A DNA stretch of 64,000 nt from a virus (IMGVR_UViG_3300042340_000194:1-64000), one strand, 5' to 3'; positions 22,401 through 41,105 are shown, counted from the first letter of the stretch. Notes: generated by a model not told the origin, from the letters alone. Numbers and translations are program-made.

Positions 22401-24949
22401 GACGGAACCTCAATAGCCATTAGCTGAGTGGTATCAGTAGTGGGGTGCCCATAAACGTTTGTTACGTTAGCTGATTTGTACGCTTGTAACTTTATCCTTG
22501 ATGTTGCCAATAAAGCGACCAAAGCGTAGGGCTGGCATGAAGGGTAGCAGGAAGCTGCAAAGGCAGTCATCTCGTGCGCCGTTATAGCTACAGATGTATT
22601 TGAATTAAAAATCTGGCCAATCAATCGCGTAGCCGAGCCAGTAGTATTGTCCCACATTAAATGCGCCATAAGAATGTACTGCCCAGGCCGAAAATTTATT
22701 ATTCTGGAGTTAGCCGTATCTGCCATCGCCCCAGTATTATCAACATCAACACGAGAAAACGTCACGTCGGTCATCGTTAAATTCGAGATTGTCTGGTTTG
22801 ATGTCAAGGAGATCTGGCATTGCATAGGCTTGGTCACCCCAGAAAGCTTCAGCCATCCAGATCCGTCGCAATAAAGCACGGCAGACTCACCGGCCCACAT
22901 GATACGCCTATTCTGACCATTTATCAATTCAGAGGCATTGCCGCTAATTGTAAATCTCCTAGTCGCCGCGTCACTAATGCGAAATGATATAAACTTGCCA
23001 GCGTTACCGGCTGCAGCTGGCAAAGTTACCGTGTAATCAGCAGTTGTCCCAGATATAAGATGTTGCCTGCTTATTGTTGCTGTGGCTGTTGTAGTTACTG
23101 CAACTTCAGAACTTGCAAGAATGGCAAGGTAGTCAGAGCCACTGTCGGTGGCAGTGACGGTGAGTGCGCCCGCAACGATCGACAAACCAGAGCCCAGGGG
23201 ATAGACCTGCGGCGCCCCGGTGCCGCTCTCGCGGCCTAGCACGCCGGCCGTCATGGTCAGCCCGCTGGAGCCGATTGCCCCAGCAAGCGCCCGGCCAGCA
23301 ATGTTGCCGACAATCTTGTTAATTGCTTGAAGGATTGAATCTGTGGCGGCAACAGTTCCCGCCTCAGCAACAAAGCCCGTTAGTGCCGATCCAATCGCTC
23401 GGGCTGCGGCAAAGAATTGGTTGCCGCCGGTTTCCGTAAGGTCGCCTGTGCCACCAGATGTGGCCACCGTGGCTAGGCCCGAAACCTGGCCCGCCGAAAT
23501 CGTCGGAATATCGCTAGCCACCAGAGATCGAAACGTCGGGGCTGCTGCCATGCCGGTCGCAGGGCCAGCCCATACCAAGTTTGCACCCTGGGCCGCCAGC
23601 GTGGCGGTCAGGGTCCCCGCCGTGGTGACGGGCGACCCGGTAACACTGAACAGGGCCGGCAGGCTCAGCCCAACACTGGTAACAGTGCCGCCATCAGGGC
23701 CACCATGGCCGCCCGTGACGCTGATGGTTTGGTTGGGCCAGGTGCCGGTAATGTTTACGTGTGTGCCTGCCACCAGCCCAGGGGTGGCCGTTCCCGTGCC
23801 GCCATTGGCGATCGACAGCAGCCCAGACACCCCCGTCGCCAGGGGGAGCCCAGTGGCGTTCACCAGGCCCAGACTGGAGGGAGTGCCCCCTGCCCCGTCA
23901 AACAGCACGGGGGCCCCCGTGGCGCCGGCGTTCACCGCCAGGGCATTGGCAATACCGGTTCCTAGGCCGCTGATGGTGCTCAGGGCCTGCGTGCCGGTGT
24001 GGTTGCTTCGGGCCAGGTAATAGGCCGCGTTGTTTGCCGCCAGGGCCGTCAGGTTTGCGGAGAGAGGCTGATAGCTGCTGGCTGCGCTGACTGTGGTCAG
24101 GTAGGCGGCCAGCGTTGAGGCCAGCCCTGGAGGCTGCACCGCCGTCGCGGCTAGGGCCCCCTGGGCAGAGCTGGCAAAGTCCCCCGCCGACGCCAGCGCC
24201 GCTGAACCCAGCTCTAGGCTTACGCGCCCAGTGGCAGCATTGAGCCCGGTAGCCCCGCCAGACCACTGCCCGCGCATTGAGTAGGCCGTATCCCAGTTGG
24301 TCTGGCTGGTGTTGCTCGGCAGGCTGAACCCTGCCGGCAGGCCCAGCGTGAGGGTGACGCTGCCGCCCGTGGTGGTGCTGCTTGTGCTCCAGCCGCTAGG
24401 AACCGACAGCGCAACCGCTTGCACCGCCGCTTCAGCCTTTGCCCGGTTGCTGGGCGCCTGCAGCCCCGCCAGCTCAGCAGTCGCCAGCGGAACATCTGCA
24501 TCCTCTCCGGTACTGGATGTAAGCCTAAAGCCGTCTGGCCCACGTAGAGTTACTGAAAGGTCTGTCCCTACTGTGGGTTGGGGCGACGGAGTGATTGAGT
24601 CAGGTGTAGTCGATGAGTCGTAGAAATCATAGTAGCTATCAGTAAACCCTACTACTGCAATAGAATCTCTAAGTCTTTTATACTCTTGTCCATAAAGAGT
24701 GGAATCAAGACCTCCGCCTAGAGCTGCCCCCGAGGGTGCTCCTACTTGAGACCCGATTTGACTAATACGAGATGCGAGAAGATGTGCGGATAGATAGGCA
24801 ACCCCATCCATCCGCATACCGCCGTTTCCCCATACTGAGGCTGGAGTTTCGCGCTCAGCTTGCGCAATAATGGGGGTGATTACTCCAGCAGGCTGCTCCC
24901 CGAACTCGGGGAAACGCTCACAGAGGCTGGTAGCGTCAAACAGCGCCAT
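22394..24949 (-). CDS. DUF4054-like head-tail adaptor fused to a long fibre domain
   Basis: N-terminal RFPEF...YLSAHLL...STLYGQEYKRL (about 100 aa), then about 750 aa of G/A/T/S-rich fibre repeats (ARSNHTGTQ, ANGGTG, GTVTSVGLS, PTFRSLVASDIP). Confidence 0.75.
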   Translation of the reverse strand: MALFDATSLCERFPEFGEQPAGVITPIIAQAERETPASVWGNGGMRMDGVAYLSAHLLASRISQIGSQVGAPSGAALGGGLDSTLYGQEYKRLRDSIAVVGFTDSYYDFYDSSTTPDSITPSPQPTVGTDLSVTLRGPDGFRLTSSTGEDADVPLATAELAGLQAPSNRAKAEAAVQAVALSVPSGWSTSSTTTGGSVTLTLGLPAGFSLPSNTSQTNWDTAYSMRGQWSGGATGLNAATGRVSLELGSAALASAGDFASSAQGALAATAVQPPGLASTLAAYLTTVSAASSYQPLSANLTALAANNAAYYLARSNHTGTQALSTISGLGTGIANALAVNAGATGAPVLFDGAGGTPSSLGLVNATGLPLATGVSGLLSIANGGTGTATPGLVAGTHVNITGTWPNQTISVTGGHGGPDGGTVTSVGLSLPALFSVTGSPVTTAGTLTATLAAQGANLVWAGPATGMAAAPTFRSLVASDIPTISAGQVSGLATVATSGGTGDLTETGGNQFFAAARAIGSALTGFVAEAGTVAATDSILQAINKIVGNIAGRALAGAIGSSGLTMTAGVLGRESGTGAPQVYPLGSGLSIVAGALTVTATDSGSDYLAILASSEVAVTTTATATISRQHLISGTTADYTVTLPAAAGNAGKFISFRISDAATRRFTISGNASELINGQNRRIMWAGESAVLYCDGSGWLKLSGVTKPMQCQISLTSNQTISNLTMTDVTFSRVDVDNTGAMADTANSRIINFRPGQYILMAHLMWDNTTGSATRLIGQIFNSNTSVAITAHEMTAFAASCYPSCQPYALVALLATSRIKLQAYKSANVTNVYGHPTTDTTQLMAIEVPSW

Positions 24950-27089: not shown

Positions 27090-28400
27090 TCATCGCCTCT
27101 TAGAAGCAGTCAGCGGTTTCTGCCAACTATTGTTGGTTTTTTGCTTGTAGCTATCGGAGGATGCTGCAGCATCGCGCCGTTGAACCCCGCGAAGGGCCGT
27201 GCGCAGCTTGCCGGTGGAATCGGCAGCATCGGTTCGGGGAGCTGGTTCGGCCTCGGGGGGATCTTCGGCATCAAGCGTGGCCAGGGCCCCCTCAACCCGG
27301 CCCCTCATTTGGGCGACTTCCATCTCCTCATCTGGGGCCTCACCGAAGATGTTTTCGTATGCTTGGACATACAACTCATCGGCCTCGATGCCGTCGAAGA
27401 CGAAATCGTCTTCAAAGGCGGGTGCGAGGAGTTGAAGAGTGTCGAGGCGGGCGGCTACTAGGGTGTCCAACCGGGAGGCTGGGATTTGAGCGAGAACCGC
27501 GTCGATGTTGTCTTCATCGAGGTGAATCTCACTGGGTTCCCCGGCATCAATCGTGGCCTGGAGCCCATCGGCCCGCCCTTCGGCGATCTCCTTCTCAGCC
27601 TCCAGGTCGGAAAAATCACTCTGCAGGGTATTTAGCTTTTCCTGCAGAGTGGAATTAGCAGTGCGCAGTTCAGTAAGGGCCTTGCTGGAATCCCTCACAT
27701 AGGCTTGCACCAGCGGAGCATATTCAGAGGCAACCTCAACATCGACTCCATCGAGATTGATACGGGCCATAACGGGGTTCGCGGGGGGTACGGGCTCGGG
27801 GGAATCGAGGAGTGCTTGATCAAAAGATACCGCTGCCGTAGAATCCATTCGATCTAACAGCAACCTGACTTCTGGGCCAGCACGTCCTTTAGGGACAATG
27901 GCGATGTGGTTGACGCGGATATTGCGTTGGACACCGTCATAGGACTCGCCTGATGGTGTTTGACCGGGGGTAGGGTCATAATCGACTCGGTAGCCGGCGG
28001 ATACTTCTACAGCGTGATCGGGAGAATCTTTACGTTGGATGTTGTCGATGGATTTTTGGTCAGTGACAAGAAGCGCGACTTCAACAAAACCGTCGCTGAA
28101 GTGGACATGCGAGCCGGCATGCCCGATTTGATACATCTTTGTATTATCCGCATCAAGGAGCTGCGGAGGATGACGCCAAGTAACTGGCTTCATCCCGAAG
28201 GATGCTAGGGTTTCTGGCTTTCCTACTTCCTCTTCCGGGCGGTACTCAGTTTCGACCCTGCCGTCAGCGCGGCGATATTTCTGGAGGCCAGTGCGGGCGG
28301 TGCGGGCCCGGACCTGGAGGTATCCCGACTCCGGGTCGATCTTGCAGCCGACGATAGGCAGCGAGAGGAAGTCGTATCGGGTAGCTGTTGCTAGGCTCAT
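27090..28400 (-). CDS. DUF2213 prohead protease/scaffold
   Basis: GYL...ARTGLQKY...EYRPEEEV...KPVTWRHP...EVSAGY...YDGVQRNIRVNHIAIVPKGRAG; acidic coiled-coil C-terminal half. Confidence 0.9.
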   Translation of the reverse strand: MSLATATRYDFLSLPIVGCKIDPESGYLQVRARTARTGLQKYRRADGRVETEYRPEEEVGKPETLASFGMKPVTWRHPPQLLDADNTKMYQIGHAGSHVHFSDGFVEVALLVTDQKSIDNIQRKDSPDHAVEVSAGYRVDYDPTPGQTPSGESYDGVQRNIRVNHIAIVPKGRAGPEVRLLLDRMDSTAAVSFDQALLDSPEPVPPANPVMARINLDGVDVEVASEYAPLVQAYVRDSSKALTELRTANSTLQEKLNTLQSDFSDLEAEKEIAEGRADGLQATIDAGEPSEIHLDEDNIDAVLAQIPASRLDTLVAARLDTLQLLAPAFEDDFVFDGIEADELYVQAYENIFGEAPDEEMEVAQMRGRVEGALATLDAEDPPEAEPAPRTDAADSTGKLRTALRGVQRRDAAASSDSYKQKTNNSWQKPLTASKRR

Positions 28401-28436: not shown

Positions 28437-29486
28437 CTAGTAGCTTTTTAACAAAGCGGTCTCTAAACTTCTGTAATAACCTTTTACAACTTTGTCTACG
28501 TGATCGGTTTCATAAGTGCGCAGCGCGTTTTCTAGAGGATCCCATTGAGGAGCCCAACGCCTTTCAAATGTTTCTACTGCGTATTCTGATAAACCTACGC
28601 GGCGTGGTACTTGAGTAAGCTCGTTGATGAAATCGCGGGCGCTAGTTCGATTTTCTGTAGCGAACTCAGCTAGGCCGAAGTCGATGAATTTAAGGCTTCT
28701 GGTTTTTGGGTTAAACATTATGTTTTTTAAGTGCCCATCGTTGTGTACGAGACCACTAATGTGTAAAGAGCGATAGAGGTCTAACATTTGGCGTTTTAAC
28801 TGTAGTGGTGCGGTGTATTTAAGCGAGAAAATACTAGAACTTACCCCATGCGTAGATAAAGGGGAATAATTGTTCAAGTGCTCCATGACCAATACCCGGT
28901 CAGTAGCTTTGTATAGCTGAGGGGATGGCACATTATTGATGTTAGCGTGCCTTAGTATCTCACCTTCAGGGAGTAAGCTTTCTGTGGGGCCGCTCAGGAA
29001 TTTATTAGGTGTCCCCCCGAGGTCGTTGTTCTTTAAGTATTTTATACCGTATTTATTAGACGGGTGGACAACATAATTACCGTAAGCACCTTGGCCCCCT
29101 AGACATCGTGGAGTCGGAACAAAGTCATCTTCTCTAATCCAGTGATCAATCTTGGATGCTGCACATGCAATTGCGTTGGCTTTCTTGTTATCTTCAAAGA
29201 CATCCCACTGTTTGCCGCGCTTCCGCGCCTCAGCTTCGATCCGATCCCAGTCCTCACCAGGGGCGGTGAATCCCTTCCAATCGGGGTCGCGGCGAACGAA
29301 ACGGCGGGCGGCGGAGATGCCTAGGGCTGCGATCCCGGCCCCAAGGGCGACTTTGCCGATCAGGCTCGGGGTGATTGTTGGATTAGAACTGGGCGCAGTG
29401 GTCTTTTTGGAGCATTTCTTGTTGTCTGGTATGCCTGACGCACCGCATTTTTTGTCGAATCTTAGTGAAGCGGTGGTTATGGGCAT
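28437..29486 (-). CDS. Ser/Thr-type protein kinase with Cys leader and TM helix
   Basis: GGQGAYG, YGIKY, LVMEHL, HNDGHLKNIM, FIDFGLA; leader RFDKKCGASGIPDNKKC; TM VALGAGIAALGISAA. Confidence 0.85.
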   Translation of the reverse strand: MPITTASLRFDKKCGASGIPDNKKCSKKTTAPSSNPTITPSLIGKVALGAGIAALGISAARRFVRRDPDWKGFTAPGEDWDRIEAEARKRGKQWDVFEDNKKANAIACAASKIDHWIREDDFVPTPRCLGGQGAYGNYVVHPSNKYGIKYLKNNDLGGTPNKFLSGPTESLLPEGEILRHANINNVPSPQLYKATDRVLVMEHLNNYSPLSTHGVSSSIFSLKYTAPLQLKRQMLDLYRSLHISGLVHNDGHLKNIMFNPKTRSLKFIDFGLAEFATENRTSARDFINELTQVPRRVGLSEYAVETFERRWAPQWDPLENALRTYETDHVDKVVKGYYRSLETALLKSY

Positions 29487-29540
29487 GATTACCGGTGGTA
29501 TGTATGCTATTCTAGCGAGGCACCTGCGTGGACACTTGTC

Positions 29541-30014
29541 TTGGGTTTTATGGATAGAGAGACTCTGGTCAAGCTAAATGGCGATGTGGCGCAGTTAAAA
29601 GGTATTATGCAGCCTTTTAATGATGCTGCCGCTCAGGCCAATAAAGGTTTTATTGAGCTTGGGCGTACTCTGAACTTAGAGGCCCAACGGCGCAATGCCA
29701 TCTTGCGAGCATTGTTTTATTCATCGGTCAAGGCCGCATCACCTACTATTGGGCGTAAACGTCGCGCCCGCAGGGCTAGGGGAAGGCGGCTAGAGGTCAA
29801 GGCAGGAAATAAAACCAATAACGAGTTTCAGTCATACGACAGTGTCTGTCCTCCGATTAGTTCAAACCATATTGCGATCAGCGAAGATGGCGAACTCAGT
29901 TTTGTTTACCGTGCTCATATTGAGCACACATCAGGAGTGACTCCTGATGGGTCAGAATATAAGGCCATTGTAAGATCAATAAAACCAATCAGTGCTAGGA
30001 TTAAGGCGTTATGA
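29541..30014 (+). CDS. Hypothetical protein with an Arg-rich motif
   Basis: ASPTIGRKRRARRARGRRL; first gene of the + strand island (start could be ATG 29550). Confidence 0.65.
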   Translation: MGFMDRETLVKLNGDVAQLKGIMQPFNDAAAQANKGFIELGRTLNLEAQRRNAILRALFYSSVKAASPTIGRKRRARRARGRRLEVKAGNKTNNEFQSYDSVCPPISSNHIAISEDGELSFVYRAHIEHTSGVTPDGSEYKAIVRSIKPISARIKAL

Positions 30015-30280
30015 TATCCCCACTCCTCATGATAGACTTTGTAACCGTACAAACCACTGTAGCATTTGAGTTGTACATGGACGAACCCGCTGGTGGGTCT
30101 AGCCTAGAGGATCTAAATACTAGGATCTTAGTATTTAGAGAGAAGCTTATCGAGATTTATGGTTGCAATCCTGCAATTCTACGTGTAGTGGAACACCCTT
30201 TCTGGATACTTAATCCAGTGGCGGATCAGCCATTTAATCTAGTTAAACCACGCTCTTATTTTTCAAACTGCCATGTTTAA
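30011..30280 (+). CDS. Hypothetical protein
   Basis: ATGA-coupled to the upstream gene and overlapping the downstream gene. Confidence 0.55.
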   Translation: MISPLLMIDFVTVQTTVAFELYMDEPAGGSSLEDLNTRILVFREKLIEIYGCNPAILRVVEHPFWILNPVADQPFNLVKPRSYFSNCHV

Positions 30281-30614
30281 GGACGACCTAGGGATAAACA
30301 TACAAAATGCTGCTTGCAGTACTACAGGCATGACTGCTGATGAAATGCTTGAACTACTAAATGAGCCGGTTACGCGCATCGTAGAGAACTTTAACATGAG
30401 GGAGAAACTGGACACTATATTGCTCGATTCTAAGCAGTTTGCGTCTATATTATCTGAACGCACCAAGGCGGCAATGAATCGCGTCTATCACAATACGAGA
30501 CCTAACTATCTACCTATCTTTGTTAACGCCTCCCCCACTATTGGACGTAAACGCCGCAACCGTCGCGCTCGGGGGCGTAAACTAGCAGCTAATCGCCAAA
30601 AAGCTTGTGCTTAA
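30273..30614 (+). CDS. Small protein carrying a copy of a major-capsid segment + Arg-rich motif
   Basis: TADEMLELLNEPVTRIVENFNMREKLDT vs MCP TADEVLELLNEPVTRIVENSNMKEQPDT; ASPTIGRKRRNRRARGRKL. Confidence 0.75.
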   Translation: MFKDDLGINIQNAACSTTGMTADEMLELLNEPVTRIVENFNMREKLDTILLDSKQFASILSERTKAAMNRVYHNTRPNYLPIFVNASPTIGRKRRNRRARGRKLAANRQKACA

Positions 30615-31212
30615 GAACGACATCTGGATAGGACAGCAAGCTGCCGCTGGGATGATCGAGCCCTATCAGGAATGTCTGTTGCGCCGCATTGAAACCTGGG
30701 AGGATAGCATTCTACAAGTAAAGCCGGTGTTGTCTTTTGGTGTTAGCAGTTATGGCTATGACATCCGGCTGTCGGCTCAGGAATTTATGACCTTCCGCCA
30801 TGTCCCTGGCACGGTGATGAACCCCAAGCGGGCCAATCCCGCCAACCTGGAGCCGGCCCCTCTCCATCAGGACGAGGATGGGCGCTACTTCATCCTGCCG
30901 GCGCATACCTACGGCCTCGGGGTAGCTCTGGAGAAATTGCGGGTGCCGCCGAATATCACTGTGATCTGCTTGGGGAAAAGCACTTACGCCCGGTTGGGGA
31001 TCATTGTGAATACCACGCCGGCAGAAGCGGCATGGGAGGGGCACCTAACCCTGGAGTTCAGTAATTCTTCTGGTGCTGATTGCCGTATTTATGCCGAAGA
31101 GGGTATCTGCCAACTGCTTTTCTTTGAGGGGGATCCCTGTGAAACTACTTATGCGGATCGGAATGGTAAATATCAATATCAGCCGGAACTGGTGACATTA
31201 GCAAGGGTTTGA
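30607..31212 (+). CDS. dcd: dCTP deaminase
   Basis: SFGVSSYGYDIRL, GKSTYARLG, TPAEAAWEGHLTLE, YAEEGICQ, YADRNGKYQ. Confidence 0.95.
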   Translation: MLKNDIWIGQQAAAGMIEPYQECLLRRIETWEDSILQVKPVLSFGVSSYGYDIRLSAQEFMTFRHVPGTVMNPKRANPANLEPAPLHQDEDGRYFILPAHTYGLGVALEKLRVPPNITVICLGKSTYARLGIIVNTTPAEAAWEGHLTLEFSNSSGADCRIYAEEGICQLLFFEGDPCETTYADRNGKYQYQPELVTLARV

Positions 31213-31242
31213 TTCTTACTTTATTGTGAAACATAATTAAGG

Positions 31243-32133
31243 CTATCGCAGCCGATTTCCCACACGTCTTGTCAGGCGGGGCGCATTACCTAAGTACCTA
31301 TCCCAGAACTTGTTGTAGGCTTGCTGTGTGGGAGCGTTTTTAGTAAGCCCGGTCTCCTTGATCAGATCAGAGAATTTCCTATGTTCTATAGGATCTAGTT
31401 TATTCAGCATGTAGTTAATGTGGTCCATATCATTGCGTAGACCTGAAGTAGGCATGAATTTGATCGGCTTGGCGTAGCCCCAGTCGATCAATTTAACATC
31501 GCCATCCTTGACCATAACATTACCCAGGTGCATGTCTCCATGTGCGTACCCGGCCTTATGCAGCTTCGACATCTCTAAGACAAACTGCTTCGCGTAGCGG
31601 GCCTTCTCCTGCTTGGTTCCGCTTTCTACGATTTTGGTTAAGTTCTTGTACCCGTCCATGTACTCGATTTGAGTTATAGATCGCGCCGAATCGACAGCTA
31701 GGACATTCGGAGTGTTGATGCCCTTATCGTGTAGTTTGGCCTGCAGCGTGACTTCACGCAGGAACTGTCGCCGCCCGACAAGGGTTTTCTTGAAGTTTGT
31801 CTTGAAGACTGATTTACGATCCGGGGAGACGTGAATGGCCCCGGCATAACCTTTGGCTAGGAACTTACTACCTTTGGGGAGATTTTGCGGAGTTGATAAT
31901 GCAATAGCTTCCTTGAAGGCACGTTCAATTGCAGGAGTCCATCTTCTCCTGTTGAGCACTCCTACAAGAACGACTCCTGTAGCTACGGCTGCGGTGGTTG
32001 TTCTCGGGGTTATGATACCTCCTGAGCTGCTTGCAGGGGCTACGCTTTTTCCACACTTCTTGTTCGCTGCAATGCCGGATTTCCCGCACTTCTTATCCAG
32101 GCGCAGCCGCGCTGCGGTCAGTTGCAATTCCAT
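31243..32133 (-). CDS. Ser/Thr-type (RIO/Bud32-like) kinase with Cys leader and TM helix
   Basis: AKGYAG, VFKT, FLREV, IEYMDG, HGDMHLGNVM, LIDWGYA; leader RLDKKCGKSGIAANKKC; TM AAVATGVVLVGVL. Confidence 0.85.
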   Translation of the reverse strand: MELQLTAARLRLDKKCGKSGIAANKKCGKSVAPASSSGGIITPRTTTAAVATGVVLVGVLNRRRWTPAIERAFKEAIALSTPQNLPKGSKFLAKGYAGAIHVSPDRKSVFKTNFKKTLVGRRQFLREVTLQAKLHDKGINTPNVLAVDSARSITQIEYMDGYKNLTKIVESGTKQEKARYAKQFVLEMSKLHKAGYAHGDMHLGNVMVKDGDVKLIDWGYAKPIKFMPTSGLRNDMDHINYMLNKLDPIEHRKFSDLIKETGLTKNAPTQQAYNKFWDRYLGNAPRLTRRVGNRLR

Positions 32134-32444
32134 TTCCGTAACGACTTATTGATCCGTGAATCCTGGTTATTAGCGGTTTTCGCGCTGGTTAGCTTACGCT
32201 TCATTCCCGACATGCGGGCACAGAACCTCCGTCGTCTTTCTGCTCTCGCTGATCCGGGTTTGAGCTTGGAGGGGTCGGTCGTTACCGCGAGGGAGAGCTT
32301 CGAGCCTGGATGTTGCTTGCGGTAGGAGGCGATGCCTGCGGCGTTAAGGCCGCCCTCGGGGTTTTTGCCTTCCTTGCGCTGCCAAGCGGGGGATTTGTCA
32401 AGGCGGATGGTTAGAGGTGTGAGTAGTCCCACCTCAGTTACCAC
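32118..32444 (-). CDS. DUF6321-like small basic protein
   Basis: AWQRKEGKNPEGGLN...RRRFCARMSGMK.KLTSAKTA...SRINKSLRKWNC, preceded by RLD. Confidence 0.7.
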   Translation of the reverse strand: MVTEVGLLTPLTIRLDKSPAWQRKEGKNPEGGLNAAGIASYRKQHPGSKLSLAVTTDPSKLKPGSARAERRRRFCARMSGMKRKLTSAKTANNQDSRINKSLRKWNCN

Positions 32445-33270
32445 TAAAGAGCCTGCGCTTCTGCCTAATCAGCCCGATTTGGGTTTTACGCGCAGCGCGG
32501 CGTGTTGAAGCAACCCCAGCTTGGGCTTTAGCCATTGTTGTAGATACTGCAGCTTTTGTCGCCTTCCGTACTCTCGCTTTAGATGGAGGTATAGCGCCTT
32601 GAGACAACATCCCCCGAGCTTGTTTGTTATTCATAGACCGTGCCATACTGGCTTGTGAGTTGCTAACTTGATTTGTCCATGGGTCTGGAATGCCACCAGC
32701 GGAATTGGTAGGGCGAGGATTGGACATGCGGCTAGTCACACGTAAGTTTTTCGCAACTCTTAGGTTAGACATAGCATTTTTCTGCATTCCTCGATATTTC
32801 ATAGCACCCACTGTACCTGCAGCAATACTACCAGCAACGGCGGCTACTTTAAGGCCGGTCTGGACGTTTTCATTACCAAGGGAGGATTTTACAGTACCGA
32901 CTAAGCCTTTAGTACACTTTTTGCCTTCAGCAATGCCGGAAGCACCGCACTTCTTGTCCTCTCTTACACTCAACACACCACGGATATAATTCTTACTGTG
33001 TTTATTGATTCCAAGTTCACAAGCATCAAGATATTCCATAGGAGTAAGTACAGCGTCCATTGCTGCTTTAGCTGCGCAGCCACAAGAGCCACTCTTCTTA
33101 CCCTTCTTCATGCAAGCGGCACAAGGCTTCTTACCTTTCCCGTGGGGGGCATCACCGTACTCGGGGGACTCTCCCTCCTCCATCTTCGAAGACTCCATTC
33201 CTTTCCCCGCAGCGCTGCCCTCGGCGGCCTTTTTACGACCCTTTTTAAGGAATGCTGCGGGGATCGGCAT
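32434..33270 (-). CDS. Basic protein with internal Cys leader and TM helix
   Basis: CAAC..CGC N-terminal part; REDKKCGASGIAEGKKC; TM VAAVAGSIAAGTVGAM; K/R-rich C-terminus. Confidence 0.7.
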   Translation of the reverse strand: MPIPAAFLKKGRKKAAEGSAAGKGMESSKMEEGESPEYGDAPHGKGKKPCAACMKKGKKSGSCGCAAKAAMDAVLTPMEYLDACELGINKHSKNYIRGVLSVREDKKCGASGIAEGKKCTKGLVGTVKSSLGNENVQTGLKVAAVAGSIAAGTVGAMKYRGMQKNAMSNLRVAKNLRVTSRMSNPRPTNSAGGIPDPWTNQVSNSQASMARSMNNKQARGMLSQGAIPPSKARVRKATKAAVSTTMAKAQAGVASTRRAARKTQIGLIRQKRRLFSGN

Positions 33271-33302
33271 GGCCTGGGTAGATAGGGATTCTCCCCCTCA
33301 GG

Positions 33303-33881
33303 TTACCGTTGAGGCACAGCCGGCAAGATTCTATGCACCCAGGCCCTCTTTAGGTTGTAATCAGGTCGGCGATCGTACCATTGAGCAGCGTCCCAAACAC
33401 TCACGCTGGGCATGCACGCAGCATAGATGGTTTTATCGGAATAAAACCCGTCGTAGAATGTGGACTTGGGGTTGTTATAGGTCCAGCTAGGGCCGTCGAA
33501 CTCCGACCAAGGATCTTTGACATTGAAGGCATAAGTGGCGTCCGCTTTCAGTTTCACACCATCGAGAGCAATAACATGCCCAGATCCGGTGAAATAGCCG
33601 TGAGTGATGAGAAACTCACCAGCTTTTAGATAACCAACAATGTCATTGAGCGAAGCGGTGTTGTTGTAGATATACCGGTCACCGATATAACCACGAATTA
33701 CTTTGCCCATGTTGGTAGTATCCCCCGCCGCACCAGGCAGGCGGTTCAATTTACGACGAACACCTAGCACGTCTTTATCACCTACCGCCATCGCAATGCA
33801 GGCGGACTGACATGTAGAAGCGTCAGGCTGGGAGAGGTTGAGTGCGTGGACTGTTGTTTTCCACTCTTGACTGATGATCAT
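33303..33881 (-). CDS. C39-like cysteine peptidase (candidate endolysin)
   Basis: SQPDASTCQSACIAM (Q...C), GHVIALDG (H), VKDPW (D). Confidence 0.75.
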   Translation of the reverse strand: MIISQEWKTTVHALNLSQPDASTCQSACIAMAVGDKDVLGVRRKLNRLPGAAGDTTNMGKVIRGYIGDRYIYNNTASLNDIVGYLKAGEFLITHGYFTGSGHVIALDGVKLKADATYAFNVKDPWSEFDGPSWTYNNPKSTFYDGFYSDKTIYAACMPSVSVWDAAQWYDRRPDYNLKRAWVHRILPAVPQR

Positions 33882-33929
33882 GACGATAATTAAGGATAAA
33901 GAGAGAAAAAGGGAGAGGTGGATGTGTGA

Positions 33930-34181
33930 TTAAGTGACCTCGTCCTCCTCACGAGGTTTGCGAAGAGCTGGGTTATATGTATTAAAACCATTCACGAAGC
34001 CAGCCTTCTCAGCCATACTTTTCATAAAAGGAACTCCCATAATAGAGCCACTGACAATCCAACAGCTAGGCCACCCACCAGGCAGGGTGGGGGAATGTTC
34101 GCAACGGATTAGAAAACCTACGCCGAATATAACTGTGGCTACGACAGGAACAGTCAACACCTTTGGCCAGCGTATTTGCAT
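33930..34181 (-). CDS. Two-TM small protein (holin-like)
   Basis: Likely start MQIRW; two hydrophobic segments and a charged C-terminus; upstream of the peptidase. Confidence 0.5.
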   Translation of the reverse strand: MQIRWPKVLTVPVVATVIFGVGFLIRCEHSPTLPGGWPSCWIVSGSIMGVPFMKSMAEKAGFVNGFNTYNPALRKPREEDEVT

Positions 34182-34200
34182 TTTGATTGGGTGTGGCACT

Positions 34201-37200
34201 TTAGTTAGAGGAAGTGGCGGGCTCGGGGGGAACTGTCTTAGCTCCGGTGGCATTCTGCTGTACTTCAGCTCGCAGGGATTTACTACTACGCTTTACCTTG
34301 TTAGGATCGTAACCTCCGTACCATACATCAATCATACGATCTTCAATTTCTGAGCGTAGTTGAAGTAGTGCTTGCTGCTTATTTGTGCTAAGAGCTTTGA
34401 TATACCGACTTTTAACATCTCTACTTTTATTACCAAATAAAACTTGTAGATCACCCTCTATTGGTTTATCGCTGGCTATACGCCATACCATTTCATTAGT
34501 CAACTCCTTTGAGCGGGCACGGTCCACTGTTAAATAACTGTGTGCCTCTTTCTGTAACTGCTTATCTAATAAATAACTATCACCAGCCTTAAAGTATTTT
34601 CTCCAGTTAGCCCCAAACTCTGGGTTATTAGGATCAATTTTTTCGCTAAGTCCATGAGGAATATTATTATTCTGTAACATGCGCACCGGACTGCTAGCGA
34701 ACGCACGTTTACCCATAGTTGCGTAAAACACATCTCCTTTGCTGACCCATGTTCGCATATTCTCATCTGTATGATTAAACACCCCGAAAGTGGGGCCTGC
34801 TACATTAACAACTTTGACATCTCTATAACCCATTTCGGCTAGAATAGCTAATGTTTCCGACGCCACATTTCCCCCATTGCTGTAGGCTAGCATGTGGACA
34901 GGCTTGCCGGTTAACCGCCGTTGTGCTGCGACAAAAGCTGCTGCACGTACTGCATCAGGATTAAACCCACGAGTTTCTATATTACCTCGCAAATAATCCA
35001 TCTGCTTAAACGCATTCTTCATCTCTATACCCATAGTAACCGGCTTCTGAGCTACTTTAGGGAGCATACCTATGCGGGCTTTCCGCGTCTTCATGTCTAG
35101 ATCGTCGGCACCTTGCTTAATAGGTTGGGAGATTTTGTTAGCAAAAGGGAGTATATCATGCTCGCCCCAGATCTCCCGAAAAGCTCCACCTTCAGCCATC
35201 AAATGACTACCTTGACCACGCTTAGTAAAAGTACCATCGTCTGCATAAGAAAGCATGACCACTGCGCCTTTGCTATTCTGTGTTTGCCCGTAAAATGCTG
35301 GGGTATTGTCCATACCACTAAACCCAGTATCATATCCTTTATCTTTGAAGTTGTAAGTAGATGCTTCAAACGGAGTAACGTCTTTGACATCCTTACCTAA
35401 ACGCTTCGCCGCTTTTTCGTTAAACTCGCGCACCATATCCTTAGCCATAGCCTCGGCGTCTATAGCAGATCTGGACACATTTCTCCTATAGGCGAATACC
35501 TGCTGAGATTTCACCCCGAGTGCGAGCCCTACGGCTGTGGCAGCCACTGCTCCAGCACCGATAGCCACATTACGGAGAGTATTGTCCTTATCTTTTGGGA
35601 TTGCTGCAGATTGCCCACCTCCGCCAGAAGCGGCTTGAGCGGCCAATGTTTTCTTAGAGCAGTTCCTATTATCAGGAATACCGGATTTACCGCAGCGCTT
35701 GTCCTGCCTAATAGTCGCAGCGAAAGCCTGGAAATAAGCATCACCGCGCTCGGGGGGCTTTCTTGCTTCCATGCGGCGGCGCTGGATTACTACGCGGGCA
35801 GCCGCCTCCGCTGACTTCTGGTTTTTATATAAAGGCTTGCCATTAGGCAATGTCCTATCCATTAGGGCTTTAAGCACGTCTAGATAAGACTGCTGCTCCT
35901 CTACATTAGTAAATTTGAAACTCTCCCTAGCCCGTCGAGGACGGTTCATCGGAGGTATCGGCGGAATAGCTCTACCGGTACGTGTGTTTAGCTCATTAGG
36001 GGGTCTTATTTGAAGCCCTTCGAATGCACCGGTCCCCCTGAGTATTGTCAAAGCTTCGGAAGGGTCTTTGATCGGCCTACCTGCGTGCTCTGAGGCAGCC
36101 TTTTGGATAGTCAGGCTCGGGGCAGACCATATCGTATTGACACTGGCGGGAAAGCCATTAGTTTGGAAATAATGCTGGTTAACTAGATCCGCAGAGTATG
36201 GGCCTTTAACCGCCTGCCTACCTGCTGTAGGGTAGAGCCGCGTAGCAAAGAACTCCGCATGCCCCTGCATCGCGTTCTGCATTACTGGGTATTGGTCTAG
36301 AGGTACGGATTTCCTTAAGCCTGTTGGCCCATAGACTTTAGGTAAAGAGTTAATAATAGACTCGTAGAAAGTATCATAGCTTGAGATTGTCTTACCATAG
36401 ATAGTTCTTGCTGTGCCAATTGCTCGGAAATTGGGGTGCAGCGTACCTAGGAGCTGGCTACGGGCTTGTTCTCTGGCTGCTGGGGTTAGCTGTTGAGCAT
36501 CGAGCAGCGTGTTAGCTAAGCTATGGCGATCTTCTAATTTACCTAGGTTAAAGCCCCGGTCTTTCGCGTAATTAGTCAACGTTTTATGCTCAGCATCCAA
36601 TTGATCTGCGATCTGCTGCACCAGCTTCACGCCTGACACTTCAGCCCCGCCAGTCACCTTGTAATGAGTTCTGAGGAAATCCTCCCCCGAGAGCGTCGCG
36701 AATTGATAACCGTCACCGACTCTATAGATTTGCTGCTCTTTCAAGCGTGGCGTGCTCCACATCGCTTTGTATGAGGCTTTATGCCACTCACCAAAGTCTG
36801 TGTAGGCGCTAGGACTTACATTTTTAACCCGCTGGCCGACAGCCGAAAATGGGGAATAGTCTAAAGGACTGGTTTTAAGAATATCAGAAGTATCGGGTAA
36901 TCCGTAGTTTCTACCAGCTACTGCTCCTACGCCATTGCGACGGCGCACTAATTCAGCGACAGCATTACGAGCTTCAGTTTTGGTACGCGCACGCGCCGGA
37001 TGTAGATCTAGCACCGAATGCAGTGCATTACTTACACTGTCATCAATGTTTTTACCAATACCTTCCCTGTAGCTGCGGATATTGCTTAAGATGCCGTGGG
37101 CACGAACTCCTCCCCCGAGTACGGCAAGAGCTACACCGATGCCTATAGACCCTTGAACTAGAGCAGCTTGTAGTTCTTTTTTCTTCTTAAGATCTTGAGG

Positions 37201-37515
37201 GGATGCTTTAACAGCACCGCGAATGACGGCTTTTCTACCGCCTTCTAATTCTGAGAAGTTACCAGTAGTTATGCCTTTTCTAAGGCGACCGAGCCCTCTT
37301 TGTGTGCTGGCGAGTGCAGCTAATGGATCACTACCTCTTCCCGCAGCTTTTAAATGTCCATCACCGCCTTCCCCCTTTAGCCGGCAATCCCATTCAGGAG
37401 GAATGCAGCGAGATCCACAACGCCGATTAGGCGGCTTACACGCAATGGTGTTTCGAGTCTTAGCGTCGATCCTCGATTGAGTAATCAGGAAAGTAGCCGT
37501 ACGAATGTTGGTCAT
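34201..37515 (-). CDS. 1104-aa two-module protein with a C-terminal alpha/beta hydrolase (lipase-like) domain
   Basis: Two Cys leader + TM units (RRCGSRCIPPEWDC; RQDKRCGKSGIPDNRNC); PVHMLAYSNGG nucleophile elbow, SKGD, IPHG. Confidence 0.7.
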   Translation of the reverse strand: MTNIRTATFLITQSRIDAKTRNTIACKPPNRRCGSRCIPPEWDCRLKGEGGDGHLKAAGRGSDPLAALASTQRGLGRLRKGITTGNFSELEGGRKAVIRGAVKASPQDLKKKKELQAALVQGSIGIGVALAVLGGGVRAHGILSNIRSYREGIGKNIDDSVSNALHSVLDLHPARARTKTEARNAVAELVRRRNGVGAVAGRNYGLPDTSDILKTSPLDYSPFSAVGQRVKNVSPSAYTDFGEWHKASYKAMWSTPRLKEQQIYRVGDGYQFATLSGEDFLRTHYKVTGGAEVSGVKLVQQIADQLDAEHKTLTNYAKDRGFNLGKLEDRHSLANTLLDAQQLTPAAREQARSQLLGTLHPNFRAIGTARTIYGKTISSYDTFYESIINSLPKVYGPTGLRKSVPLDQYPVMQNAMQGHAEFFATRLYPTAGRQAVKGPYSADLVNQHYFQTNGFPASVNTIWSAPSLTIQKAASEHAGRPIKDPSEALTILRGTGAFEGLQIRPPNELNTRTGRAIPPIPPMNRPRRARESFKFTNVEEQQSYLDVLKALMDRTLPNGKPLYKNQKSAEAAARVVIQRRRMEARKPPERGDAYFQAFAATIRQDKRCGKSGIPDNRNCSKKTLAAQAASGGGGQSAAIPKDKDNTLRNVAIGAGAVAATAVGLALGVKSQQVFAYRRNVSRSAIDAEAMAKDMVREFNEKAAKRLGKDVKDVTPFEASTYNFKDKGYDTGFSGMDNTPAFYGQTQNSKGAVVMLSYADDGTFTKRGQGSHLMAEGGAFREIWGEHDILPFANKISQPIKQGADDLDMKTRKARIGMLPKVAQKPVTMGIEMKNAFKQMDYLRGNIETRGFNPDAVRAAAFVAAQRRLTGKPVHMLAYSNGGNVASETLAILAEMGYRDVKVVNVAGPTFGVFNHTDENMRTWVSKGDVFYATMGKRAFASSPVRMLQNNNIPHGLSEKIDPNNPEFGANWRKYFKAGDSYLLDKQLQKEAHSYLTVDRARSKELTNEMVWRIASDKPIEGDLQVLFGNKSRDVKSRYIKALSTNKQQALLQLRSEIEDRMIDVWYGGYDPNKVKRSSKSLRAEVQQNATGAKTVPPEPATSSN

Positions 37516-39377
37516 TTAACGTCCTCGGGGGCGGGCTTGAGCGTGAAGATCGTCTGCTCGGGTAGAAAAGCCGCTAAGCCTTTCCTAGCAGCCCGGAGCG
37601 AGGCATAGCCAGTAACCTGCGGGCCAGGGAGGATCGCCCCATCGAGCTTAATGGTGGAGTTGAGCAGGGCATAGCGCCGGGATCGGCTGGGCCCGAGCAA
37701 CACCAGGCCGCCAATATCCGGGCCTGTTGCGTCGTTCCGGGTAGTGGTCCCCACCGGATAGCCCAGGCTGGCGCCGTCTTGATGCTTGATCACGTCGATG
37801 GTCAAGCCCAGAGCCTCGTAGCTGTCGGTCTTGGGCGCGGGCTTCGCCGGTTGAGACTCTTGAGACGCAGGTTGAGACTGGCCAGGGACCTCGCCGCCCT
37901 CGGGGGGAATCGGCTGGCCGTCTGGTCCTAAACCCTGCGCCTGGAATGCTTGTGCTTGTAACTGATTCATATTGTTCTCAAACATGCTATCCTCTTGCAT
38001 TTGTAGCTGGGCAGATACGTTCTCGTCCAGCACAGTCTCAATACTGTATTCCGCTGAGCCGTAGCGATTATTTCTAATTTCTATAGGACTTAGCACTCTT
38101 AATGCTGCATAAATATTGTCTATTTCAGCTCTGGACTTCTGTACAGCGAGCTTCTCCGTGGCGGTCTCAACGAACACCGAGGGGAACGAAATTTCCCACG
38201 ATTCTGGTGGGGTGCCCCGCATGGGACTGTCCTTGGCCCGCATGAAAAGCTCAAAAATATCGGAAATAGGGTCTTGGCAATAGACAGTCTGCCAGTCCTC
38301 TACTAGAGAGGCCCATACTCGCTCTTCAAACCGCCCTTCTTTCCCGAGGCCGCCAGGACTGGTGCCCATTAGAATTGACGCAGGCCAACCAGTAGTAGCC
38401 TGCATGTACTCAGCAAAAGGTGCGGTGGCTTGCGCCATGTTACTGAGGGATCTTTCAGCAAAGCCTATCTCTTCATTCGCGTCTATTAAGAATCCTCCAT
38501 AGGAGGATCTAGACATGTTGTTTATTTCCATGCGTTTCATCACCTGATTAGCGTTACCGGCTCTCACCATCTCCATTAACCCTGGCACTTTATGCCAAAA
38601 CAAAGAAGAGTCTGTAACACTAGAAGATAATCCTCTAATGGACGTTTCATACAGTTTCCATGAATCCCATACTACTTGTAATGGTGCTTGGCCCCAGCCT
38701 TGTTGTTGTTGGCGCTGTCGCCAGGGTAGGTACAGTCCATCAAAGCGGCTAACTCTAGTGTGATGGATACGCATATTTGTTACAGGGCTTTTCTGGTTCT
38801 CGTCTAATTTTTGATTAGTAGTAATTCTGTACATCTCGGGTTTGGAGTAGTCCATAACGGACACGTCCATGGGAAATATTTCGTGGCGTGATAACGCACA
38901 CAGCCCACGAATACCACGAATGCGGTCGTAGTTTACAGGTGTTTCCGGGTCTTCGTTGCCATCATCAACTAGAGCGACAATGACCGATCCGCCGTAGAGG
39001 CGTTGAAGGCGGACAGCTTCGGCATACACCCGGTGGAATTTCAACTGTTTAAGGTAGGCTTCAAAATCTGTGATCTGGTCAATCTCTTGGGAAGCTTTCC
39101 GGCCTCCTAGTTTAATTGTGACACGATGTTTGAGAACTTCATCGGCAATAGAATCGACAAAACGCCGGGGTAGTCCTACGGAGTAAAGAGCTTCGAGTTC
39201 TGGATGAGAGAGTAGATAGCTAGTCCGTATGCTTGTTGATTGGCTTCGGTCTTTACCTGCTATTCCCATGCCTGTAAAGGCATTGACTAAAGCTCCATCT
39301 GTACGCATGCCATCAGCATCGCTACGATTGCCGATAGCGACGGAATTATCGGGAGCTTCGGGAGATACTGATTTCAA
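37512..39377 (-). CDS. Portal protein (DUF1073) with a C-terminal extension
   Basis: DGALVNAFTGMG..KD, RLYGGS, PEMYRI, IHHTRV, WPASILMGTSPGGLG, WEISFPS; follows terL. Confidence 0.9.
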   Translation of the reverse strand: MKSVSPEAPDNSVAIGNRSDADGMRTDGALVNAFTGMGIAGKDRSQSTSIRTSYLLSHPELEALYSVGLPRRFVDSIADEVLKHRVTIKLGGRKASQEIDQITDFEAYLKQLKFHRVYAEAVRLQRLYGGSVIVALVDDGNEDPETPVNYDRIRGIRGLCALSRHEIFPMDVSVMDYSKPEMYRITTNQKLDENQKSPVTNMRIHHTRVSRFDGLYLPWRQRQQQQGWGQAPLQVVWDSWKLYETSIRGLSSSVTDSSLFWHKVPGLMEMVRAGNANQVMKRMEINNMSRSSYGGFLIDANEEIGFAERSLSNMAQATAPFAEYMQATTGWPASILMGTSPGGLGKEGRFEERVWASLVEDWQTVYCQDPISDIFELFMRAKDSPMRGTPPESWEISFPSVFVETATEKLAVQKSRAEIDNIYAALRVLSPIEIRNNRYGSAEYSIETVLDENVSAQLQMQEDSMFENNMNQLQAQAFQAQGLGPDGQPIPPEGGEVPGQSQPASQESQPAKPAPKTDSYEALGLTIDVIKHQDGASLGYPVGTTTRNDATGPDIGGLVLLGPSRSRRYALLNSTIKLDGAILPGPQVTGYASLRAARKGLAAFLPEQTIFTLKPAPEDVK

Positions 39378-39608: not shown

Positions 39609-41105
39609 TCAGGCCGCCTTGAGGAAGCCCAGGAGATCGACGGATCCGGGGGCCGCCATGGCTGCCAGAGCCACACCCATCACCGTGTCATCGTGGGCCG
39701 ACCCCCCTGCCCCCCGCTTTCCGTGGTCATCCCGGCGGAATGCTCGATGCTCAGCAGCAATGATCCCATCAGGGAATATTAGGTCATCATCCTCCATCAT
39801 AAAGAGAGTTCTGTCGGTTATTGCGTTTTTGATGGGATCAGACATATAGACTAGCTCTATTTCAGTCCCCATGGATTGCAGTGCAAGCGCCTCCGCTATG
39901 ACAATGCCCATGGAGTTCTTCTCTACTATGATTTTAGAAGGTAGAAAATTCTCTATCAACTCTTTTACTTTGGCTAAGCTGTACGGGGAGGATTTGTAGT
40001 GTTCCCGATACATGGCTGCCACGCGCCGTGGTTTAGAGGTTACGTCAAGCACTACAGCGGTGAAGTAGTCATTACCTCCTCCGTTGGGATCCACTCCCAT
40101 GGAGTAGATGCGGTTTGCCATACCGCATTCATCGAAGGAACCTTTAGCACATTTTTTGACTAACAGGCTGTCATATATGGCAGATGCGGTAGCACCGAAT
40201 TTAAGCTCAAATTCCGCCGCCCATTGGTTTAGTGTTAGCTTCTCTTGTTTTCTATAAGTTGCTGGCCAGGTAGGATCTGCACCATACTGTGGGTGCATTG
40301 AGTAATGAAGCGCTACCCGTGCCCATCCGTCCGCTTCCCCGGCTTTGTTTAGAAGGGCTTGAAGGCCTATTAGATCACGACGTTCTACATAGTCATACCA
40401 GTCGGAGGGGAGGCCCGTTGTCCACATTTCGCCGAACCAGTCTGACTCCATGTCTGGAGTAGAGACTATGATCACTTTCCCGGCTTTGCCTAACTTCATC
40501 AGTGAAGGGCTGGCTCCTTGATATAAATCTTTTACTCCGTCGATAAAGGCGGCTTCGTCGAGGAAGAGTACAGAACAGGCTGGGATACCACGAACGCCCC
40601 GACCTGTAGGAGCTAAGAAATGTAGAGTGCCTCGCCCTTTCCAGGATAGCCGCTTAGTGCTATCCGATAGCCATGTTAATGACTCACCTTGGAGGGATTC
40701 CGCCATGAAGCGGACCCGTATAGCTAGCTCCTCGGAGTCCTTGCCTGTTTTTGAGACAATTACGGCAGTAAAGCCGGGTTCTGTTAATGCCCTGTTTAAT
40801 AGATAATTACAGATAACTTCCGATATGCCGATCTGCCTAGATTTGAGGACTTGAATCCGGCGAGAATTGTGGAGTATGCGTACAAATTCTTTCTGAAATT
40901 CATACGGCGCAAAGGGTTCAATCTTGGCACCGTCATCGTCACCAGTTTTGATCCAAGTAAGCGGCGCGAACTCCTCCCAGTTCTTTACAGGAGGTAACGA
41001 AGTTAGTAGCTTTGCACTGGCGTGATTAGCTGCTGCAGCTTCGCGCTGAGCTACCTTCTTCTCCAGTTGAGCCAGACGAGATTTGAGTGACGCTCCGGTT
41101 CTCAC
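39609..41105 (-). CDS. terL: Terminase large subunit
   Basis: PYEFQ, VLKSRQIGISE, LFLDEAAF, VSTP, GVDP..GND, VEKNSMG, HDDTVM. Confidence 0.95.
   Translation of the reverse strand: MRTGASLKSRLAQLEKKVAQREAAAANHASAKLLTSLPPVKNWEEFAPLTWIKTGDDDGAKIEPFAPYEFQKEFVRILHNSRRIQVLKSRQIGISEVICNYLLNRALTEPGFTAVIVSKTGKDSEELAIRVRFMAESLQGESLTWLSDSTKRLSWKGRGTLHFLAPTGRGVRGIPACSVLFLDEAAFIDGVKDLYQGASPSLMKLGKAGKVIIVSTPDMESDWFGEMWTTGLPSDWYDYVERRDLIGLQALLNKAGEADGWARVALHYSMHPQYGADPTWPATYRKQEKLTLNQWAAEFELKFGATASAIYDSLLVKKCAKGSFDECGMANRIYSMGVDPNGGGNDYFTAVVLDVTSKPRRVAAMYREHYKSSPYSLAKVKELIENFLPSKIIVEKNSMGIVIAEALALQSMGTEIELVYMSDPIKNAITDRTLFMMEDDDLIFPDGIIAAEHRAFRRDDHGKRGAGGSAHDDTVMGVALAAMAAPGSVDLLGFLKAA

Follow-up and report, generated by a model that had tools for sequence, protein, structure and literature searches.

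What do the proteins encoded between the portal and the head-maturation protease of an uncultured phage have in common, and what could this common part be for? The question is raised by IMGVR_UViG_3300042340_000194:1-64000, a window of 64,000 nucleotides (the whole stretch of DNA analysed) that forms part of a 75.6-kb IMG/VR virus record rated complete by CheckV. On the minus strand of this window, four proteins with different C-terminal parts carry five copies of a leader module, in which a short peptide ending in R-x-D and a basic cysteine loop are followed by a hydrophobic helix. We propose, with moderate confidence, that these leader proteins are encapsidated and probably ejected internal head proteins that share a common loading and processing module. 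Known phage-carried proteins include the T4 internal proteins, the P1 Dar proteins, MuF-fused toxins, and the N4 RNA polymerase. To our knowledge, few targeting signals for packaged phage proteins are known, and all come from model phages.

Architecture of the leader module

A six-frame search of the window with the regular expression R-x-D-K-[KR]-C-G-x-S-G-I-x4-[KR]-x-C returns the two-cysteine motif exactly four times in 64 kb, at 29412-29462, 32053-32103, 32914-32964, and 35659-35709, and a variant expression matches once, at 37384-37425. All matches lie on the minus strand within 28437-37515, and the search found no further copy elsewhere in the window. A hidden Markov model (HMM) built from the five modules matches just those five across the whole 75.6-kb genome. 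The original prediction for this locus had listed the same five leaders, and each was recovered by the regular expressions. It had regarded the fifth as a variant of the others; the motif is present there, but it represents a distinct four-cysteine type.

Two motif types can therefore be told apart. Type B, found on the other leader proteins, is a two-cysteine loop (C-x10-C). Type A, found on the core post-portal protein, is a four-cysteine knuckle (C-x6-C-x3-C-x6-C, or C-x6-CG-x-RCIP-x4-C) that heads a conserved domain of about 110 aa, and its four cysteines are invariant in 21 sequences. The AlphaFold2 model of this domain (mean predicted local distance difference test score, pLDDT, of 66) consists of a beta-hairpin knuckle (pLDDT ~80), a helical hairpin, and a long helix. 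The type-A knuckle is probably metal-binding and a candidate zinc knuckle or ribbon.

The family consensus reads [TAS]-L-T-P-x-x-x-R-x-D-[LK]-K-C-G-[KA]-[GS]-[AG]-I-x-x-[GN]-[EK]-K-C-x-K-G. Over 46 diverse modules, D, C, G, and C are invariant, and R, I, and K are near-invariant. In N-terminal modules, the first cysteine is residue 14 in 123 of 155 cases, behind an N-peptide with the consensus M-[TAS]-L-T-P-x-x-x-R-x-D; the N-peptide is thus of fixed length, like the capsid targeting sequence (CTS) of phage T4. The four type-B copies in the window diverge at many synonymous sites and have no long identical DNA tract in common, which indicates that conservation acts on the peptide.

The hydrophobic helix follows at a short distance. 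Within 100 aa after the motif, a 19-residue Kyte-Doolittle window (KD19) reaches at least 1.2 in 83% of 313 modules, compared with 9% of control windows under the same test. Helix composition is dominated by Ala (31%), Gly (20%), Leu (14%), and Val (12%), and 84% of the helices contain a small-xxx-small-xxx-small zipper. KD19 has a median of 1.57 and attains the classical transmembrane (TM) threshold of 1.6 in 47% of modules. The helix is flanked on either side by basic residues (+2.5 and +3.2), so no clear membrane topology can be read from them. In the window, an Ala/Gly-rich helix stands behind every leader and the C-terminal parts differ, just as had been predicted. A complex prediction with four copies of leader plus helix scored 0.01 with a poorly folded partner and provides neither support nor counter-evidence. 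A lipoprotein signal was considered and ruled out, as the cysteine stands before the hydrophobic stretch and no lipobox fits.

Size and distribution of the family

Back-translated patterns drew 42 and then 79 loci from IMG/VR. A search of 1.84 billion representative proteins with a profile of 46 diverse leaders gave 398 clusters at E<=1e-3, including 103 at E<=1e-10, and a single protein may hold as many as four modules. The same profile matched more than 218 proteins in a collection of 5.8 billion proteins. The module is essentially not cellular: in a scan of one genome per species for 185,579 prokaryotic species, with an alignment of nine leader sequences as query, the single match lay on a 32.9-kb contig binned in a Thermosynechococcus metagenome-assembled genome (MAG). 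Among 50,697 isolated phage records, tblastn with the 1104-aa protein described below and two leaders found the motif in none. Searches of protein libraries and of the literature likewise found no description of the leader module, which appears to be previously undescribed.

The phages that carry the module are uncultured siphophages of about 70 kb. In the window's genome, a long tail is indicated by an 1826-aa open reading frame (ORF) further along, which is a tape-measure candidate. Judged by the portal, the closest isolated phages are Synechococcus phage S-CBS4, at 35% identity, and Aphanizomenon phage CL131, at 27%; the leader motif is absent from the portal neighbourhoods of both. In CL131, the annotated portal (L002, 8800-12981) is a 1393-aa protein made of a portal and a large C-terminal extension without leader motif, a fusion reminiscent of the 'minor head protein and DNA pilot' of PHROG 220.

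Confinement to the portal-protease interval

The leader genes of the window are flanked by the portal (37512..39377, minus strand; PF06381, formerly DUF1073, E 7e-53) and by the DUF2213 head-maturation protease (27090..28400, minus strand; E 7e-44), which is fused to an acidic, coiled-coil, scaffold-like C-terminal half. Pfam thus bears out both flanking genes named in the original prediction. To see how general this placement is, 362 leader-bearing ORFs from 120 viral loci were counted; some loci overlap on the same contig, and the counts are not fully independent. Wherever both landmarks are visible, the leader ORF lies between portal and protease on the same strand (146/146). Of the others, 113 are found downstream of a portal and 70 upstream of a protease where that one landmark is visible, giving 183 on its correct side, and 31 are on fragments with neither. 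The expectation that leader and helix would recur between these two genes passes this count.

The sole positional exception is one contig (L038, the same as L050), in which the leader gene comes after capsid and connector genes. It is contig JAGVDA010000062.1 of the MAG Thermosynechococcus sp. WC_1 and also provides the only cellular-genome match. Its 654-aa protein contains two leader modules, an LRAT-like domain, and a J-domain, and is encoded after the capsid gene and several small structural genes. No portal was detected within the 20 kb examined, and the terminase is on the opposite strand. This contig may represent a different, smaller element or a mis-binned phage contig.

Gene junctions in the array are tight or overlapping. 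Across the clade, gene order runs from the large terminase (TerL) through the portal, a big post-portal protein, MuF (90 of 120 loci), a core protein resembling the 278-aa protein of the window, one to four type-B leader genes, and sometimes DUF6321, to protease, cement, and capsid. The start of the big protein overlaps the portal stop. Its N-peptide, type-A knuckle, and helix are followed by a mid-domain of about 430 aa and often by a type-B leader with cargo.

Basic cargo and a candidate cleavage consensus

With the leader masked, the cargo of leader proteins has a median isoelectric point (pI) of 10.0, and 92% of it lies above 9, whatever the cargo type. The corresponding medians are 5.1 for portal, 4.5 for protease, 5.4 for capsid, 4.9 for cement, 5.8 for TerL, and 9.3 for MuF, a known family of internal head proteins. 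Uniform basicity is typical of internal head proteins that contact DNA, and basic cargo set against acidic shell proteins is suggestive of an intracapsid location.

A second line of evidence concerns the pattern [RK]xD[SA]. It occurs no more than 20 aa upstream of 58% of 195 internal leaders, whereas the control windows have it in 4.7% of cases. With shuffled sequences as the baseline, its enrichment is 7.4-fold in protease-scaffold proteins, 3.1-fold in portals, and 2.3-fold in leader proteins, and TerL, capsid, and cement are depleted in it. Enrichment in protease-scaffold and portal, placement before internal leaders, and depletion in the shell together form the pattern expected of a prohead-protease consensus. 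On these suggestive grounds, [RK]xD[SA] is put forward as a candidate cleavage consensus of the DUF2213 prohead protease. Prohead proteases are active only inside procapsids.

The individual sites follow the same distribution. The DUF2213 protein of the window has four, one of them at the boundary between protease and scaffold (residue 184); sites conserved among protease-scaffold proteins, one of which marks this boundary, fall near residues 125 and 186 in the numbering of the window copy, with more in the scaffold half. Three sites are present in the window's portal, at residues 18, 516, and 547, and one stands just before each of the two leaders of the 1104-aa protein. Capsid, cement, and TerL of the window have none. 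The two motif types, the uniformly basic cargo, and [RK]xD[SA] before internal leaders are newly described here.

The 1104-aa post-portal protein

Both module types meet in the 1104-aa core post-portal protein (34201..37515; this and all its parts are on the minus strand), the first leader gene of the array, whose start overlaps the portal stop in an ATGA. From the N-terminus, it consists of the N-peptide, the type-A knuckle, helices, a hydrophobic helix, the mid-domain, an internal type-B leader, a helix, and a putative lipase-like domain. The [RK]xD[SA] site RIDA (37462..37473) falls within the conserved N-peptide, eight residues before the first type-A cysteine; the N-termini of big proteins in general have a conserved ..AAYLAxxxRLD[A].. 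peptide ahead of the knuckle. The type-A motif itself spans residues 26-44 (37384..37440), where AlphaFold2 predicts the beta-hairpin, and an Ala/Gly/Val-rich hydrophobic helix comes after its domain at residues 117-133 (37117..37167).

The conserved mid-domain of about 430 aa (35716..37023) recurs in more than 100 related big proteins, and its model is confident (pLDDT 77.5) and all-alpha. Foldseek searches with this domain against PDB and BFVD returned nothing at E<=1e-3, and VIA-align reached a Z of 6.5 at best, over 75 residues. PDB searches by sequence and profile gave nothing meaningful for the mid-domain or for the 415-aa C-terminal domain, and the ESM Atlas held no usable match for the mid-domain or the 278-aa protein.

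A second site, RGDA (35737..35748), has its Asp 16 residues before the first cysteine of the internal type-B leader, RQDKRCGKSGIPDNRNC (35659..35709), which was located by the six-frame regular expression. An Ala/Gly hydrophobic helix follows at residues 650-666 (35518..35568), and the remainder is a 415-aa cargo (34204..35448) with a candidate nucleophile elbow, AYSNG. This cargo had been predicted to be an alpha/beta hydrolase. Residues 690-1104 have no direct match in Pfam (E<=1) or among PDB sequences (E<=1); the AYSNG motif and transitive jackhmmer links to P0133, P0142, P0144, and P0195, which match Lipase_3, Abhydrolase_1, or DUF900, hint at a possible lipase or abhydrolase relationship.

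Diverse cargo behind a common leader

The three remaining leader proteins of the window are also encoded on the minus strand. The 278-aa core protein (32434..33270) comprises a conserved N-domain, a type-B leader (32914-32964), a helix (32803-32853), and a K/R-rich tail, with a pI of 10.4. The other two had been predicted to be kinases, and Pfam agrees. A 296-aa protein (31243..32133; leader 32053-32103, helix 31951-32001) is Pkinase/RIO1-like (Pkinase 2.4e-10, RIO1 3.8e-08), and a 349-aa protein (28437..29486; N-terminal leader 29412-29462, helix 29316-29366) is Pkinase/ABC1-like (Pkinase 6.7e-08). Their catalytic loop and DFG-type motifs are intact in sequence, HGDMHLGN..IDWG and HNDGHLKN..IDFG (HxDxxxxN, D[FW]G).

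Beyond the window, Pfam assigns 17 of 122 cluster representatives to DnaJ, about 12 to kinase-like families, and four to LRAT/NlpC-P60, with several lipase/abhydrolase families, ATLF, ADP-ribosyltransferase (ART), and Tle3 among the others. The majority of representatives have no Pfam match, and DUF5872 cargo is present in other family members. At least 10 Pfam families stand behind one leader, and 468 cargo segments form about 85-117 clusters at 60-75% mutual coverage, a setting adopted after single-linkage clustering at 40% coverage had chained 373 segments and been discarded. The C-terminal diversity anticipated for the family is therefore borne out. Cargo turnover is visible even between close relatives, for example between loci L008 and L011. 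The leader genes of the window abut or overlap and have no small ORF behind each cargo, although no dedicated search for immunity genes was run.

Comparison with known packaged proteins

MuF proteins provide the first point of comparison. PF04233 (MuF) matches no window protein at E<=0.1 and nothing anywhere in the 75.6-kb genome at E<=10, in line with the earlier remark that no MuF motif is present, and MuF is absent genome-wide from the window's subclade. Relatives encode MuF separately, in a gene of about 290 aa (E 1e-12 to 1e-15) that is never fused to a leader; examples directly after the big post-portal protein are L033:9590-10468 and L031:6221-7078. The label 'MuF-independent' given to the leader is accordingly accurate for the window genome but not for the clade, in which 90 of 120 loci have a stand-alone MuF in the same slot.

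Leader genes share this slot after the portal with MuF/SPP1 gp7 and MuF-fused toxins, and leader proteins are basic like MuF. As in MuF-fused toxins and polyvalent proteins, a constant head-association part is joined to variable effectors (kinases, ARTs, peptidases, lipases), and the combination that marks polymorphic toxins, a constant trafficking part at the N-terminus followed by effector domains that vary widely, is found here. Unlike MuF toxins, leader proteins have no MuF domain; in contrast to the single giant polyprotein of polyvalent systems, most effectors here have a gene and a leader of their own. A leader of this kind is not described in the paper on polyvalent proteins, where neither 'cysteine' nor 'transmembrane' occurs as a word (Iyer et al. 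2017; PMC5512222). There, late-operon position combined with early-acting functions serves as an argument for packaging (PMC5512222).

By genomic logic, MuF-fused toxins and polyvalent proteins are the closest analogues of the leader system, whereas the closest functional analogue is the T4 CTS with its internal proteins. The T4 CTS is a short N-terminal peptide of about 10-11 residues that ends in an acidic residue and sits on several unrelated basic internal proteins; IPI-III and Alt are delivered with the DNA and act early, and the T4 prohead-protease site is (L/I)xE. The leader N-peptide is likewise short and of fixed length, ends in an acidic residue, and is common to unrelated basic proteins, and its putative prohead-protease site also recurs in the scaffold. 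The two peptides are not similar in sequence, however, and the leader adds a cysteine loop and a hydrophobic helix. For the leader proteins, the putative site reads RxD instead of (L/I)xE, the protease belongs to another family (DUF2213), and the capsid protein appears to be without the site. Their packaging and cleavage are putative, in contrast to T4.

Ejection proteins of short-tailed phages offer a further parallel. P22 gp7/16/20 and T7 gp14/15/16 are products of structural-module genes that are packaged, contain hydrophobic stretches, and function at the host envelope as the phage enters (PMC8402733, PMC4992974). Leader proteins are similarly encoded in the structural module and carry hydrophobic segments, but their phage is long-tailed with a tape-measure candidate, whereas the P22 and T7 proteins belong to podoviruses and have no swappable enzymes.

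A final comparison involves DUF6321. The window encodes a DUF6321 protein (32118..32444, minus strand; E 3.6e-17) that begins with a version of the leader N-peptide lacking the cysteines (LTPLTIRLD). It is about 51% identical to the C-terminus of GC0119, a protein of T4-like cyanophages annotated as structural, and both are basic and contain cysteines. GC0119 is a cyanomyovirus protein that differs from leader proteins in having neither an RxD-Cys-loop leader nor the helix, and 'structural' is the annotation of its record. The leader N-peptide on the window protein, together with that annotation, was counted in favour of an intracapsid reading.

Proposed procapsid loading and alternative explanations

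Under the proposed explanation, the leader proteins would be expressed late, at the same time as the capsid, and enter the procapsid, where the DUF2213 protease would trim them; at the next infection they would probably leave the particle along with the DNA. The module would have three parts: an N-peptide of about 11 residues ending in R-x-D; a basic cysteine loop, mostly with two cysteines (C-x10-C) and as a four-cysteine knuckle on the portal-coupled core protein; and an Ala/Gly-zipper hydrophobic helix between basic residues. It would act as a common handle on exchangeable C-terminal enzymes (kinase, J-domain, lipase, LRAT, ART, metalloprotease) and on two core proteins, the big post-portal protein and the 278-aa protein. 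The helix might form bundles in the head interior, enter the host membrane, or do both. In a more tentative extension, which we hold to be possible but short of probable, the N-peptide and cysteine loop would dock any protein in the procapsid and DUF2213 would trim it. The helix would then keep the enzyme, once ejected, at the inner membrane of the host, next to where the DNA enters, and there J-domains, the commonest cargo, might recruit host DnaK to refold other ejected proteins or pull them through. Membrane-anchored J-proteins work in this manner at mitochondrial and ER translocons.

Several points weigh against procapsid loading. The motif is carried by none of the 50,697 isolated phage records, and encapsidation, RxD cleavage, ejection, and the role of the helix are what we infer from the genes. 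The original prediction, which saw the leader as a MuF-independent capsid-loading tag on cargo ejected into the host membrane for takeover, anti-defence, or superinfection exclusion, stands in the same position: location and diversity agree with it, MuF independence holds only locally, and packaging, ejection, membrane entry, and cargo function keep the status of inference. In S-CBS4, the portal-protease interval is a hotspot for unrelated accessory genes, and in the window it contains an opposite-strand island, which makes position alone weaker evidence. The 278-aa protein and both window kinases have no [RK]xD[SA] site. In protease, portal, and MuF, the RxD[SA] sites fall where the sequence is conserved in general, and the sequences compared are related; the enrichment statistics therefore overstate independence. 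No link to known ejection or internal proteins was found by sequence for the 415-aa domain or by profile and fold for the mid-domain. Lastly, a hydrophobic helix sits uneasily in a soluble capsid cargo and is just as compatible with anchoring in the membrane of the producing cell.

This last point leads to the main rival, which we judge unlikely: the proteins would be late, unpackaged, membrane-anchored products acting in the producing cell, with the helix as a true TM anchor and the basic cysteine loop at the membrane surface. Kinases, J-domains, and lipases tethered to the inner membrane could then serve envelope remodelling, lysis timing, or superinfection exclusion. Such anchoring agrees with the helix in 83% of modules, about half of which reach a KD19 of 1.6, and with non-structural accessory genes of S-CBS4 in the same interval, and E. 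coli DjlA is likewise built of a TM helix followed by a J-domain at the C-terminus. It leaves unexplained, however, the near-absolute confinement between portal and protease across 120 loci, the fusion of the module to a portal-coupled core protein, the uniformly basic cargo, and the protease-site-like motif before internal modules. The helix is also Ala/Gly-rich and only weakly hydrophobic in half of the modules, and basic residues on both sides give no clear topology. Slightly less likely still is that the module serves chiefly as a component of an ejectosome, with loading as a secondary role and the enzymes as passengers. Ala/Gly-zipper helices would then co-assemble after ejection into a channel across the host envelope, as for P22 gp7/16/20 and T7 gp14/15/16. 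The shared module on two universally conserved core proteins, the zipper in 84% of helices, the presence of up to four modules per polypeptide, and the large all-alpha mid-domain, like that of many internal core proteins, would suit this role. Yet in a long-tailed phage the tape measure, for which the 1826-aa ORF is a candidate, is normally the conduit, the mid-domain showed no significant fold similarity to T7 or P22 ejection proteins, and a channel does not by itself account for the conserved N-peptide and cysteine loop.

A leader peptide with no role of its own, serving as a recombination handle for cassette swapping or resembling its counterparts through chance or low complexity, is highly improbable. 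Conserved 5' regions do serve cassette exchange in polymorphic toxin loci, a point taken up in PMC5512222, and cargo changes between L008 and L011. Synonymous divergence among the four window leaders without a long identical DNA tract, peptide-level conservation with D, C, G, and C invariant over 46 modules, and fixed spacing from the N-terminus nevertheless disagree with this reading, as do the 103 clusters recovered by the HMM at E<=1e-10.

Implications of a possible modular loading signal

A single, sharply delimited stretch of about 60 residues recurs on hundreds of distinct effector-like proteins in this abundant clade of uncultured phages. If this module is indeed a loading signal, it would permit a sequence-only listing of the 'injected proteome' of environmental phages, including many domains without a known family. 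It would likewise yield a candidate cleavage consensus for the uncharacterised DUF2213 prohead proteases and a compact tag that could be tried for placing foreign proteins into capsids. Should the tentative docking and J-domain extension apply as well, the system would amount to natural modular protein delivery through a phage tail. The high frequency of J-domains and kinases, putatively membrane-tethered, suggests tactics of host takeover that are not known to have been studied in phages.

Neighbouring genes and minor observations

The minus strand of the window is a classic head module. In addition to portal and protease, it encodes the small terminase (41102-41581), TerL (39609-41105), a cement protein (PF22758), and a PF09950 major capsid protein. 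An 851-aa protein (22394-24949, minus strand) matches DUF4054 over its first ~65 residues (E 4e-7), and its long remainder has no family match. Between the 1104-aa and 278-aa proteins, two minus-strand genes without leader fill the slot in which most relatives carry MuF: a 107-aa protein with one strongly hydrophobic helix (33930..34253), conserved in the window's subclade, and a 192-aa candidate papain-fold peptidase that is weakly C39-like (33303..33881).

DUF6321 is widespread, with 500 records from marine cyanomyoviruses, pelagiphages, and a Planktothrix phage. One cyanophage DUF6321 'structural protein' (L128:5981-7264; 427 aa) contains several small, basic, Cys-containing mini-modules, of which MVPNCVP also occurs upstream of some leaders. 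Marine virus AG-345-E15, with a 71% identical DUF6321 protein, was rejected as a relative, being an unrelated phage in which the module is absent. A literature search on DUF6321, DUF5872, DUF6496, and DUF2213 cleavage sites found nothing useful.

The opposite-strand island inside the array (29541..31212, plus strand) is not part of the leader system. Within its 113-aa ORF (30273-30611), a 56-residue stretch is 54% identical to residues 147-202 of the phage's own capsid protein (E 2e-16), and its 157-aa ORF (29541-30011) weakly resembles part of the phage's own DUF2213 protease (E 1e-4). Both ORFs have an internal Arg-rich stretch, SPTIGRKRRxRRARGRxL, and could be capsid-assembly decoys or remnants. 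They are followed in the island by a dCTP deaminase (PF22769, E 4e-23), and the island is kept in the closest relatives (L008-L013).

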